From contig CAXXNF010000001.1 in NCBI GenBank assembly GCA_963666365.2, positions 384,001 to 448,000 of the forward strand: a stretch of DNA of 64,000 nt, given 5' to 3'. Positions 13,162 through 17,129 of the stretch are shown here, one piece after another. A program made the position numbers and the translations under genes. The notes beneath the pieces are model-generated. The model was not told where the DNA came from. It did no database searches and was given only the letters and a program-made list of their open reading frames with translations. The stretch is from Syntrophales bacterium (GTDB taxonomy: Bacteria; Desulfobacterota; Syntrophia; Syntrophales; UBA2210). Within the stretch, counting starts at the first letter, position 1. Each line of letters begins with the position of its first letter.

Positions 13162-15354
13162 ATGATACGCCCTCACAAAAGATTCTGCATTGCTGTGTTT
13201 GTCTTTCTGGCCCTTTTTCTCGTCAGCGCTTCCCCTCTTCACGCCACCGAGCAGTACGCCCGCGAAACGGGCAAAGGCTGCGCCTTCTGCCATCAGGAAT
13301 CCACGGGCGGCCCGCTGTCAACAACGGGTTTTGCCTACATCCGAAACGGATACCGCTATCCCATCCCGGAACGGGTCCTCGACAAAGCGGCAGCCCTCAC
13401 CACCCCTTTTCATAGAATCATCCGCTTTATCATCGGCTACATCCATCTCGTGGCGGCGGTCATATTCTTCGGCGCCATTTTCTATATCCATATCTTCGTG
13501 CGCCCCACGCGCCTTACAGGAGGTATTCCCCCTCATGAACGCATTCTGGGACTCAGCTGCATGGCGACTCTTACTGTCACTGGAGTCTATCTGACCTGGT
13601 TCCGCATCGACCGGTGGGAACAATTTTTCAATAACACCTTCGGCCTTTTGCTCTTTATCAAAATCATCCTTTTCGCCTGCATGATCGGCCTGGGAATAAC
13701 AGCTGTTACCGTTATTCACCGAAAAATGCGGCAACAGGCCACGGCACAATCTCGGACTCCCGAATCCGGGGAACTTACGAAGGAAGCACTTAACCGCTAC
13801 GACGGCACGGGAGAAACCCCCGCCTATGTGGCCGTTGAAAACCGAGTGTACGACGTCACGCAGAGCCCTAAATGGAAGGGAGGCCGTCACTTCGGCAAAC
13901 ACAGCGCCGGCGCCGATTTAACCGAAGCCCTGAAGGGAGCGCCACACGGACCGGAGGTACTGGAGAACGTCCCCATGGTCGGGGAGATACAGGAAAGGGA
14001 AGTCAAGTCTCCACCACGACCGATGGCCCATCGCATCTTTGTCGTCTTCGCCTACACTAACCTGGCGATTGTCTTTCTGATTCTCATCTGCATCAGTCTG
14101 TGGCGCTGGGGATTTCCCCTGTCCGCCCCCGGCGTGTCCAAGGGTCAGATTGCCTCCGGCACAACGTGCCTGGAATGCCACCAGCAGACAAAACCGGCGC
14201 TTTACCGGGACTGGAAGGCAAGCGTGCACGCCAAGGTAGGCGTTGATTGCTACGACTGCCACAGGGCGGACAGTGACGAAAGGGCCGTCAACAAGGCGCA
14301 TCTCGCGCAGACTCAGCTGCCGGTAGCGACGGTTGTCACGCCCCGGCGGTGCGCCCAGTGCCATCCTTCCCAGGTTGAGGAGTTTTCCCGGAGCAAGCAC
14401 GCCCACACCAGGGACATCATGTGGAAGATCGATTACTGGCTCAAGGACGGCATGAACAGCGAAATAGAGCGGATCTCCGGCTGCTACAGCTGTCACGGCA
14501 CTGAAGTGTCCCTTGAAAACGGAAGCCCTCTTTCCGGGACATGGCCGAACGTGGGGATCGGACGCACCAATCCCGACGGATCGCAGGGATCCTGTTCAAG
14601 CTGCCATACCAGGCACCGCTTTTCCATTGTAGAGGCCCGAAAGCCGGAGGCCTGCGGGCAGTGCCATCTCGGACCCGACCATCCGCAGATAGAAATTTAC
14701 ACTGAATCGAAGCACGGCGCCCTCTACCATGCGGAAGGACACGACTGGACCTGGGCGCCGGACGACGCCGCATGGACCGCGGGAAGAGACTTCCGGGCGC
14801 CTACCTGCGCCACCTGCCACATGTCCGCCGCCGGAGCGATCGCTGCCACGCACAACGTCAGCGAACGCCTCGCCTGGGAACTGCAGGCCCCCTTGACGGT
14901 GCGTCCGCAGGATTTTCAACCCTTCCCCGCAACGACGGACTGGCGGGTCGAACGTAACAAGATGGAACAGGTCTGCCTGCAGTGCCATTCCTATGTCTGG
15001 ACCGCCAGCCACTTCGAAAACCTGGACAGCGTCATTGAACACTACAATACCGAATATTATCTTCCCATAAAAGCGCGTATGGACAGCCTCTATGATCAGC
15101 AACTGTTCACCCGCAGCCCCTTCTTCGACGAGGAACTGGAATGGGAATTTTACGAATTCTGGCACCACGAAGGAAGGCGCGCCCGCATGGGTGCGGCCAT
15201 GATGGCCCCCGACTACGCCTGGTGGCACGGCTTCTATGAAGTGAAACACCGCTACAACGTCATCGTGGAAAAGGCGGAACAATTGAAAAAGACCGGCCCT
15301 TCAAGGCGGTATGAGGATTTTCCGGGGAAACATCAAGAAGGGGCGAACGAGTAA
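13162..15354 (+). CDS. Multidomain cytochrome: monoheme c + CopD-like TM domain + cytochrome b5 + octaheme HAO-like domain
   Basis: Nine CxxCH (CAFCH; CLECH, CYDCH, CAQCH, CYSCH, CSSCH, CGQCH, CATCH, CLQCH); b5 motif YDG..AYVAVENRVYDVT..WKGGRHFGKHSAGADLT..APHG; HAO-like CHLGPDHPQIEIYTESKHG and HHEGRRARMGAAMMAPDYAWWHG; GGAGG before ATG 13162. Confidence 0.88.
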   Translation: MIRPHKRFCIAVFVFLALFLVSASPLHATEQYARETGKGCAFCHQESTGGPLSTTGFAYIRNGYRYPIPERVLDKAAALTTPFHRIIRFIIGYIHLVAAVIFFGAIFYIHIFVRPTRLTGGIPPHERILGLSCMATLTVTGVYLTWFRIDRWEQFFNNTFGLLLFIKIILFACMIGLGITAVTVIHRKMRQQATAQSRTPESGELTKEALNRYDGTGETPAYVAVENRVYDVTQSPKWKGGRHFGKHSAGADLTEALKGAPHGPEVLENVPMVGEIQEREVKSPPRPMAHRIFVVFAYTNLAIVFLILICISLWRWGFPLSAPGVSKGQIASGTTCLECHQQTKPALYRDWKASVHAKVGVDCYDCHRADSDERAVNKAHLAQTQLPVATVVTPRRCAQCHPSQVEEFSRSKHAHTRDIMWKIDYWLKDGMNSEIERISGCYSCHGTEVSLENGSPLSGTWPNVGIGRTNPDGSQGSCSSCHTRHRFSIVEARKPEACGQCHLGPDHPQIEIYTESKHGALYHAEGHDWTWAPDDAAWTAGRDFRAPTCATCHMSAAGAIAATHNVSERLAWELQAPLTVRPQDFQPFPATTDWRVERNKMEQVCLQCHSYVWTASHFENLDSVIEHYNTEYYLPIKARMDSLYDQQLFTRSPFFDEELEWEFYEFWHHEGRRARMGAAMMAPDYAWWHGFYEVKHRYNVIVEKAEQLKKTGPSRRYEDFPGKHQEGANE

Positions 15355-15400
15355 GGTAATTCCAGGTAATTCCGTAATTCCGGGGACAGTATACATAATT
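15355..15400. repeat. Stuttered repeat (GGTAATTCCA-GGTAATTCC-GTAATTCC) abutting a candidate orphan element end GGGGACAG
   Basis: Read directly; starts immediately after the cytochrome stop codon. Confidence 0.7.
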
Positions 15401-15490
15401 ATTGACAGTAAGAATAGAAAACTGATTCAGGTCGCATCATGTGAAGTAATTGCACATACATATAGCATACATACATATGCATATGTGCAT

Positions 15491-16432
15491 ATGGGGTCAG
15501 GTCTTGAAATATCAGTTTATTTATGATAACAGGGACACCAAATAAACGATCAAGAGGCAATCATGTCCAGACCTCTGAGGATAGAATATCCCGATGCGGT
15601 ATATCATGTGACATCGAGAGGGAATGCGAGGAGCGACATCTTTCATTCCGCTTCCGACCGGGAAACTTTTTTAAAGATTTTATCCGGCGTTGTGCAACGA
15701 TTCAACTGGCTTTGCCACGCCTATTGCCTGATGGATAATCACTACCATCTCCTGATTGAGACACCGGACGGGAATCTGTCAAAGGGAATGCGGCACCTCA
15801 ATGGCGTCTACACGCAGAAATATAATTGGCTGCATCAAAAAACGGGGCATGTCTTTCAAGGACGCTATAAGGCGATCCTGGTGGAAAAAGACAGCTATCT
15901 GCTCGAACTGTGTCGATATGTTGTTTTAAACCCGGTTCGGGCAGGGATGACGGAGAAACCGGAACAATGGATATGGAGCAGCTATCGTTTTACCGTCGGG
16001 ATGAAAAAACCGCCGGAATATTTGACGATAGATTGGATACTGGGATTGTTCCATAGCAATAAGTCGGAGGCTCAGAAGCACTATCGGCGATTCGTCAGAT
16101 CAGGAATTGGGCTTAAATCCATCTGGGAGGAGCTCCATGGCCAGATTCTTTTAGGAAAAGAGGCATTTATAGATTCGCACAGCAATCTATTGCATGACAC
16201 ACAACCGGTTAAAGAAATTCCCAGAATTCAAAGATACTTAAACAGACCAAAACTATCAAACCTGTTTTCAAAAGCAATGGATAAAACGGACAGGAATAAG
16301 CAAATCCACCGAGCGCACATCCAACATGGTTATACGCTGAAAGAGATCGCCGATCATCTGGGAATTCATTACACAACGGCAAGCAAGATCATTAAAGTCG
16401 AAGAAAGGTGATATTTCAAGACCTGACCCCAT
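15491..16432 (+). mobile_element. 942-bp IS-like unit: HUH transposase between perfect 24-bp terminal inverted repeats
   Basis: ATGGGGTCAGGTCTTGAAATATCA (15491-15514) and its exact reverse complement (16409-16432); visibly more AT-rich than neighbouring genes. Confidence 0.88.
15563..16411 (+). CDS. REP-associated tyrosine transposase-like (Y1/HUH) protein with C-terminal HTH
   Basis: MSRPLRIEYPDAVYHVTSRGN, AYCLMDNHYHLL (HUH), FQGRYKA, RYVVLNPVRAG, WSSY, and HTH GYTLKEIADHLGIHYTTASKII. Confidence 0.92.
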   Translation: MSRPLRIEYPDAVYHVTSRGNARSDIFHSASDRETFLKILSGVVQRFNWLCHAYCLMDNHYHLLIETPDGNLSKGMRHLNGVYTQKYNWLHQKTGHVFQGRYKAILVEKDSYLLELCRYVVLNPVRAGMTEKPEQWIWSSYRFTVGMKKPPEYLTIDWILGLFHSNKSEAQKHYRRFVRSGIGLKSIWEELHGQILLGKEAFIDSHSNLLHDTQPVKEIPRIQRYLNRPKLSNLFSKAMDKTDRNKQIHRAHIQHGYTLKEIADHLGIHYTTASKIIKVEER

Positions 16433-16442
16433 TCACCTGCAT

Positions 16443-17129
16443 TCACCTGTGCTCCTCCACCCATTCCGCCCAGCCGGACGGCACTTTCTGAAAGTGCATG
16501 TAATCTACAGTCCCCTCAGTCCACTCGCCTCCCCATTCCCATCCCAATTGCTTGAAAACCTGCACTACGGGAGAATCCGCGGTCAGGGTTCCCGGCACGG
16601 AAGGGCTGTACACCGCCTGTGGAGGCAGAATCAGATCGCCGCGCATATAGGGATTCTGACGGGGATTGATGTCCACCGCCATCCCCAGGGCGTGCAGTGA
16701 CAATTTTCGAGCGCCCACGATGGGACGCCAGACATACCCCGAGGTATTATTGGTGTCGGGGGAAAGGCCATAGGGCCCCTTGCGCTGAATTAGGGGATGG
16801 GCAATGGGCAGGACCGATTCCACAGGGAAACGGGTTTTCAGGATGACGTCGAAGACCTGACGAATGTCCGACAGGAGCGCTTCATGCACCACGATCTGTC
16901 CCTGATGCAGGCACCCATCGTATCCGTAATACCGCACGTCCGCCAGGGCAAGTTTTTTCTGAATGCCGGGTACGACATCCGGCGGCTGATTCGAGAACAC
17001 CGCCTCATCCGGGGTAAGGCGGCTGTCTACTGTAACCTCACCTCCGCATGCATACCCACCCTGCAGCATAAACAGCGCCGCCACCCATACGACAATGTTC
17101 CCTAGTGCCTTCACAGCGTTCACAGGCAT
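16443..17129 (-). CDS. M15-family peptidoglycan peptidase (exported)
   Basis: NNTSGYVWR, SLHALGMAVDINP (SxHxxGxAxD), WEWGGEW..DYMHFQ. Confidence 0.85.
   Translation of the reverse strand: MPVNAVKALGNIVVWVAALFMLQGGYACGGEVTVDSRLTPDEAVFSNQPPDVVPGIQKKLALADVRYYGYDGCLHQGQIVVHEALLSDIRQVFDVILKTRFPVESVLPIAHPLIQRKGPYGLSPDTNNTSGYVWRPIVGARKLSLHALGMAVDINPRQNPYMRGDLILPPQAVYSPSVPGTLTADSPVVQVFKQLGWEWGGEWTEGTVDYMHFQKVPSGWAEWVEEHR

Follow-up and report, generated by a model that had tools for sequence, protein, structure and literature searches.

The stretch of DNA considered here (the window) comprises 64,000 nucleotides of contig CAXXNF010000001.1 from a Syntrophales bacterium and contains, at 15491-16432, an element of the TIRtron kind, in which the gene for a Y1 HUH enzyme (TIRYT) lies between inverted repeats that begin with a GGGG tag. 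Short tandem repeats, referred to below as stutters, are built up against both ends of this element and against a solitary end nearby. The generality of such stutters across the element's family was confirmed with strong controls. The features of the locus, with positions given as those of the window, are as follows.

13078..15354, + strand: left neighbour, a multihaem cytochrome fusion gene whose stop lies directly before stutter 1
15354..15381, + strand: stutter 1, AGGTAATTCC, AGGTAATTCC, GTAATTCC (Tandem Repeats Finder, 3.0 copies, and repeat search)
15376..15420, + strand: solo left end and leader remnant of a second TIRtron family, AATTCC and then GGGGACAGTATACATAATTATTGACAGT...
15447..15493, + strand: stutter 2, nested CATA / GCATAT reiterations, the innermost being TGCATATG twice at 15478-15493
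15491-16432: TIRtron element, a gene between GGGGWSAS inverted repeats
15491..15514, + strand: left inverted-repeat arm ATGGGGTCAGGTCTTGAAATATCA, fitting GGGGWSAS (repeat search, I1)
15563..16411, + strand: TIRYT / TnpAY1 subclass 2.1 gene, 282 aa, with a Y1 HUH core and a putative C-terminal helix-turn-helix
16409..16432, - strand: right inverted-repeat arm (repeat search, I1)
16430..16449, + strand: stutter 3, CATTCACCTG twice (Tandem Repeats Finder, 2.0 copies, 100%)
16443..17129, - strand: right neighbour, a Peptidase_M15_4 gene, convergent with the cytochrome fusion gene

The three stutters that a preliminary description had placed at these junctions are present. A repeat search separate from Tandem Repeats Finder returned the same three repeat families (D13, D14 and D16), and Logan contigs of run X17 match 14900-15405 and 15380-17000 throughout, without a single gap or differing letter, although run X17 may be the source sample, so that its agreement lends weak independent support. 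At stutter 2, Tandem Repeats Finder reported 15454-15483 as well as the innermost TGCATATG pair (2.0 copies, 100%), while stutter 1 can be read from its sequence as a 10-nt duplication followed by an 8-nt one. Every array stops at, or one base within, a GGGG-tagged end: position 1 of the inverted repeat is the last G of TGCATATG at the left end and the first C of CATTCACCTG at the right end. As had been described, the stutters are one-sided and do not form a target-site duplication, the left TGCATATG and the right CATTCACCTG being unrelated and each tandem on one side; AT are the only flank bases common to both ends of the element. The repeat beyond GACCCC was also said to duplicate the stop region of the neighbouring gene, and the TGA stop of the peptidase gene does sit in the outer CATTCACCTG copy.

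Two elements of that description required revision. The units were taken to be copies of the flanking DNA, and flank bases are indeed copied, but a unit is not pure flank: it usually takes in 1 or 7 bases of the end, and the TGCATATG and CATTCACCTG units both reach one base into it. The stutters were also assigned to each end of the element. This holds for stutters 2 and 3, which adjoin the resident element, but stutter 1 adjoins the end of a different multi-copy family and does not consist of host flank, as AATTCC (6 of its 8 bases) is the conserved outer part of that family's repeat.

The 'GGGGACAG' at 15382 belongs to this second TIRtron family and not to element 15491-16432. Positions 15376-15420 represent a solo left end with approximately 30 nt of leader; for approximately 34 nt this sequence matches without difference the left ends found at the paralogous genes of G000:C2 1.17-1.18 Mb, beyond which homology fades. 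The end of the second family reads AATTCC-GGGGACAGTATAC(T/A)TAATT and has 53 genomic copies when up to one mismatch is allowed in the 13-mer; in 28 of these, AATTCC stands directly before GGGG. Because stutter 1 abuts this end, it is made up of the family's outermost six bases and two to four flank bases. A parallel is provided by AACCTC, which in one lineage is found just outside GGGG at L121, L126, L137 and L153, four sites whose flanks are unrelated. Judged from these sequences, in some lineages approximately 6 bases beyond the tag evidently travel with the element or are its target, and because of these shared bases the "flank" in stutters is in part the element's own outer end. Four paralogous TIRYT genes of the second family are clustered at G000:C2 ~1171000-1181000, where they are interleaved with a 2521-bp insertion sequence (IS), and the family also occurs as several palindromic doublets (e.g. 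C1 200267/200311 and C2 600002/600045).

For the wider survey, a stutter was scored as an exact duplication with a period of 6-45 and a run of at least one period that starts in the flank and finishes at or inside the end. The homolog set comprised 80 homologs (53-72% protein identity, from many phyla), most of which have the core GGGGTCAGGTCT at both ends; by eye, their flanks contain tandem copies of a few flank bases together with truncated end. In the window and these homologs, duplications were found at 35 of 145 ends (146 less one dropped for an N; 33 of 143 without the window) compared with 47 of 7199 positions taken as controls within these loci. Metagenome contigs carrying the exact 21-nt end gave 15 of 87 distinct ends (89 matches, 2 dropped) compared with 17 of 2610 control positions. 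Pooled, an exact tandem duplication across the end/flank junction is present at 50 of 232 distinct ends, against 0.5-0.9% in controls. The preliminary description had named a lack of enrichment at homologous ends as the result that would count against it; in this test, which was set beforehand, the enrichment was 23- to 37-fold over controls. Where at least 260 nt were available outside the end, 45/212 ends were duplicated versus 21/2332 positions 95-250 nt further out and 9/1978 positions inside the elements. In the second family of the same genome the count was 4/53 ends versus 114/20000 random genome positions, a background at which chance is excluded. No duplication was detected at 52 ends of other IS-like repeats of this genome, a control set that includes the 2521-bp IS with its ordinary 8-bp target duplications.

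Stutters are also borne by two gene-less doublets, L168 and L183, from the metagenome contigs, which is consistent with action in trans. Inverted doublets that lack the gene and consist of the window's own end (L167, L168, L183, L184, L136 and L140) are approximately 69 nt in length, and one contig has several of them; that of L167 folds as a 33-bp hairpin (-36.8 kcal/mol). They look like derivatives of the window's TIRtron family of the REPIN or miniature inverted-repeat transposable element (MITE) type. A further hint of gene-less doublets comes from a contig of run X19 (depth 279) in which 15518 is joined to 16411 across the gene with just CTT between, 21 letters lying on the shorter side of the joint.

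The anatomy of the duplications is regular. If t is the number of end bases in the repeated unit, then t is bimodal among the 50 stuttered ends, with t = 1 in 12 and t = 7 in 11 and minor values of 2-4, 6, 8, 9, 14, 17, 19 and 33. The inner boundary therefore falls at discrete sites, chiefly past base 1 (R/GGGTCA, the slash marking the break) or past base 7 (GGGGTCA/GG), and the outer boundary lies approximately 7 nt outside GGGG, mostly 5-12 nt. Mean flank length is independent of t, at 7.1 nt for t of 4 or less, 7.6 nt for t of 6-9 and 7.6 nt for t of 14 or more. Units range overall from 6 to 42 nt, and the array abuts an intact end. The run equals the period in 29 of 49 cases; this is close to the chance value of 56% that we derived by hand, so there is no microhomology beyond chance. 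A "CA" start of the flank part was considered as an outer-boundary motif and did not hold, and nothing else strong emerged; the lack of G at the first flank base follows from how maximal runs are defined.

Copies in a stutter always have the orientation of the adjoining end. Among the homologs, GGGTCA occurs in the outer 60 nt in direct orientation at 32/145 ends and inverted at 2/145, with control windows giving 152/7150 and 132/7150, respectively. Partial end copies are direct at 10/87 and inverted at 0/87 ends of the metagenome set, and direct at 11/53 and inverted at 1/53 ends of the second family. Iteration, which the preliminary description had envisaged, is borne out at 11 of the 50 stuttered ends, where at least two successive events can be parsed. 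The array of L034, for example, was rebuilt by hand letter for letter in two steps, a 13-nt duplication of the innermost tract followed by one of 15 nt. The longest stutter found is that at the left end of L094, an array of at least 12 9-nt units (CAGGGGTCA).

The stutters differ between near-identical strains, and two related strains with the same insertion depart from the window almost exclusively within them. Contigs of organism B (run X19) carry the same insertion as the window. In record 17 of this organism there are 0 other letters over 14900-15446 and 15486-15764, while CATA replaces 15447-15485, making the left stutter 35 nt shorter net; 8 letters fewer are present somewhere in 14900-15446, possibly one GTAATTCC unit. 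In record 22 the right stutter is 7 letters shorter, all within 16441-16452. X1, a more diverged strain with the same insertion (27 other letters over 16411-17000), has 6 letters fewer at the right stutter, all within 16436-16449. As the left junction of organism B reads ...gaag CATATG CATAT/GGGG, the innermost TGCATATG copy of the window looks like one further event on the organism B state. The strain evidence for turnover is suggestive. No empty site was found in the relatives, as their peptidase gene has no cytochrome gene next to it and is followed by DNA that has diverged too far, and no locus among those fetched shares the window's flanks. The peptidase gene is present in 15 of 41 relative genomes; its product ends in ...YR or ...YRRQ before the stop, with no TIRtron downstream within the fetched stretch.

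The inverted repeat of the element (15491-15514 / 16409-16432) is 24 nt in length and perfect (100% complementary), with core GGGGTCAGGTCTTGAAATATC and beginning ATGGGGTCAG, and its sequence has just 2 copies in the 4.0-Mb genome. GGGGWSAS is the consensus of the inverted repeats of "TIRtrons", the enzymes of which were named TIRYT (Di Nocera et al. 2013, PMC3733652), and the GGGGTCAG tag of the window element, which is the best-conserved stretch of the end, conforms to it. The 282-aa protein matches Y1_Tnp (PF01797) in Pfam over residues 12-120 (E-value: 9e-13), while its C-terminal matches are weaker: HTH_23, which together with Bac_DnaA_C and HTH_28 is among the C-terminal helix-turn-helix types of this subclass, over residues 252-278 (E-value: 1.2e-4; 22.2 bits, under the 24.6 cut-off) and a sigma-70 region-4-like match over residues 222-278 (E-value: 1.9e-4). 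A sequence search of solved structures returned no match at an E-value of 0.01. The translation holds NHYH, FQ (FQGRY), YVVLNP and an SS tail motif (WIWSSY). In Table 1 of Quentin et al. (2018, PMC6006769), NH[YF]H or NHVH, Y---NP, FQ/W[EQ] and an SS tail are listed as signatures of TnpAY1 subclass 2.1, and the 282-aa protein has both the HuH motif and Y---NP with FQ/W[EQ] and the SS tail; its gene is flanked by GGGGWSAS inverted repeats, without REP hairpins, as is also the case in this subclass. Based on its predicted protein and its ends, the window element is classified as a further TIRtron, a kind already known.

Two other assignments were rejected. A canonical RAYT / REPtron (groups 2 and 3) does not agree with ends that carry GGGG rather than GTAG and are not palindromic, nor with the score of the protein against the NCBIfam model REP_Tyr_transpos (NF047646), which is 78.2 bits with a cut-off of 80. 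An element of the IS200/IS605 type (subclass 1.1) is ruled out by the 282-aa length, Y---NP and the 24-nt inverted repeats, since subclass 1.1 is described as having a protein of approximately 150 aa, Y---Q, subterminal hairpins and no inverted repeats (PMC6006769). Folded alone, a single end lacks a stable structure (-0.6 kcal/mol, z 0.37), as is described for TIRYT ends in the available literature. A conserved hairpin in the end was accordingly rejected, GTCA...TGAC pairings being visible by eye in some lineages only.

The duplications at these ends are position-specific, orientation-specific, independent of homology, iterated, junction-spanning and absent at other repeated elements. We lean towards reading them as footprints of repeated action of the HUH enzyme at its own end, by nicking, short re-synthesis and rejoining, and consider causation by the enzyme, which we infer, to be plausible. 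TIRYT would nick one strand at its own end, and, with the cut 5' end held on the catalytic tyrosine, a polymerase would re-synthesise a short stretch of DNA spanning the junction; the new 3'-OH would then resolve the phosphotyrosine link, leaving two tandem copies. Repeated rounds would build arrays, which ordinary slippage could expand. The sharp inner breaks look like cut sites, and the broad outer boundary could be the edge of a protein-held region. Variants of this scheme are that the two boundaries have the reverse assignment, or that staggered nicks on both strands are followed by fill-in. The proposed chemistry is borrowed from TnpAREP, which is described as cutting single strands 5' or 3' of REP, with any 3'-OH able to resolve the phosphotyrosine link (PMC8266576); priming of replication by a 3'-OH has been proposed for that enzyme (Corneloup et al. 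2021, PMC8266576). Same-strand cutting at C/A or C/T at both boundaries, when written out by hand, did not reproduce the observed junctions.

Several points weigh against footprints of the enzyme. No observation links the duplications specifically to the enzyme, and they may be due to the DNA or a bound protein; a literature search returned no biochemistry for subclass 2.1. Y1 enzymes need single-stranded DNA, and templated re-synthesis needs the complementary strand. The flank part keeps about the same length however far away the inner break lies, something that a simple model of one nick plus random extension would not predict. Approximately 78% of ends have no exact stutter, many of the loci derive from metagenome bins and lack phylogenetic independence, and the strain comparisons use contigs, not raw reads, of low depth (2.2-2.5 for organism B and 9.84 for X1). 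As there is no empty site, stutters with t of 1 or less are not strictly datable to after insertion.

The main rival is that a replication fork stalls at an end-bound protein or at a structure of the end and then slips or switches template, with the HUH active site uninvolved in the joining. In its favour, the breaks are concentrated at the place expected of a bound protein, the outer boundary keeps a fixed distance from the end as the edge of a footprint would, and arrays such as that of L094 surely grow by slippage once two copies exist. The first duplications, however, lack microhomology beyond chance, the inner breaks peak sharply at bases 1 and 7, a single end does not fold stably and the ends of the other repeated elements, which are protein-bound too, have no duplications. 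Absent microhomology and sharp breaks leave this explanation disfavoured, and we regard it as rather unlikely. The preliminary description had also offered cycles of insertion and excision, to which may be added the insertion of truncated end copies beside a resident end. Family ends do occur solo and as gene-less doublets, and unordered clusters are attributed to REPINs inserting beside REPINs (Bertels and Rainey 2011, PMC3116915). Such events nevertheless do not fit the anatomy: unique host bases are copied along with the truncated end, in register and without spacers, the opposite side of the element has no duplication, an end cut off at base 1 or 7 is too small to move as a unit, and inverted partial copies are at or under background. 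We therefore judge this origin improbable.

It is similarly improbable that the origin of the arrays is secondary and that those bearing GGGGTCA are kept by selection, either for binding the helix-turn-helix domain or for tuning expression of the transposase or a neighbour. The length of some arrays (L094 and L025) and the conservation of the tag above all other parts of the end would be expected under selection, but the unit contains a single end base in the 12 cases with t = 1, units differ at every locus, and the differences between close strains suggest turnover and not conservation. Chance or an assembly artefact is very improbable. Short repeats are hard to assemble and the contig depths are low; on the other hand, the enrichment appears in two separately drawn sets and in the second family, and the exact agreement of the run X17 contigs with the window also speaks against an artefact.

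The element and its stutters have several counterparts in the literature. A Y1 HUH domain, as in the window gene, together with a C-terminal helix-turn-helix in approximately 240-280 aa is described for TIRtron/TIRYT (PMC3733652), TnpAY1 subclass 2.1 (PMC6006769), the second largest subclass in that survey, and RAYT Group 1 (Bertels et al. 2017, PMC5581495). TIRtrons as reported have, as here, GGGGWSAS inverted repeats at a fixed distance, low copy number and a wide host range, and some of their ends make up repeat families of moderate abundance, arranged as dimers or clusters. Their available literature differs in that it describes no micro-duplications of truncated end plus flank, no breakpoints and no turnover; the word "duplication" is absent from the text of PMC3733652. 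The preliminary description did not recognise the stutters as a described property. This stands for the TIRtron family, for which we found no such report, but it does not extend to REPINs and REPs, whose reiteration together with flanks is in print (PMC3116915, PMC3733652). Ordered REPIN / REP clusters resemble the stutters in this tandem reiteration, and a second, unknown mechanism of formation was inferred for ordered REPIN clusters by Bertels and Rainey (2011, PMC3116915). As described, the repeated piece of such clusters is an entire REPIN (tens to hundreds of bp) together with its flanks, and a spacer that is not itself repeated is often present, whereas stutters have units of 6-42 nt containing an end cut short at base 1 or 7, and they abut an intact end.

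The related HUH enzyme TnpAREP cuts beside a 4-nt tag of its recognition element (PMC8266576); in contrast to the ends studied here, which do not fold and are known from sequence alone, its described substrates are GTAG-tagged hairpins cut at C/T or C/A. The target-site duplications of DDE insertion sequences are, like stutters, short direct repeats of host DNA made by fill-in and without microhomology. They differ in having one copy per side and a fixed length (8-bp for the 2521-bp IS of this genome), whereas stutters are one-sided, take in bases of the end and are of variable length. Rolling-circle HUH elements such as IS91 and Helitrons form tandem or multi-end arrays, in which nicking and synthesis with imprecise termination lead to reiterated ends. 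Unlike TIRYT, their enzymes are Y2 proteins with a helicase and copy kilobases, so that both scale and enzyme class differ. In the literature on TIRYT, the end motif, REPIN/RAYT and HUH tandem duplication, as far as the available texts go (Figure 9 of PMC3733652 could show copies without comment), no account was found of micro-duplications at the junction that contain a truncated end, of the breakpoints or of the turnover, and the papers returned for the end motif and for HUH tandem duplication were unrelated. The footprint appears to be an undescribed property of a known kind of element.

This footprint is family-wide and fast-changing, and it probably marks where the enzyme acts on DNA. Both the cellular action of RAYT-like HUH enzymes and the formation of REP/TIR clusters have been open questions since these elements were first described, and the sharp family-wide breakpoints give concrete predictions for cleavage assays. 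More tentatively, TIRYT may write templated micro-duplications at their own ends, in which case the breakpoints (R/GGGTCA/GG and ~7 nt outside the tag) could serve as an in vivo map of cutting and rejoining, the duplications could be the seed step of REP- or TIR-type clusters, and the enzyme could possess a natural "nick, copy a few bases, reseal" activity. If the enzyme makes the stutters, a single small protein would be carrying out short templated duplication. Stutters would also account for hypermutable tandem repeats that arise locally beside genes; in this window they touch the stop codon of a neighbour.

Some further observations were made in the window and the collected loci. The cytochrome fusion gene to the left of the element encodes 758 aa with CopD-like, cytochrome b5-like and multihaem cytochrome domains. 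Other tandem repeats of the window lie at 26925-27204 (99-nt unit, 2.8 copies, 99% matches), 9520-9618 (9-nt unit, 11 copies) and 28043-28080 (18-nt unit, 2.1 copies). In two unrelated elements, ATGT stands in place of GGGG (ATGTTCAGGTCTTGA...) at the left end of L032 and the right end of L058, which could be a replaced or damaged tag. Outside the window, a 1068-bp repeat with two copies in the genome (G000:C1:122501-123568 and 147787-148854) begins ATTTATAGGGGTCAG and has a GGGGTCAG tag near one end.

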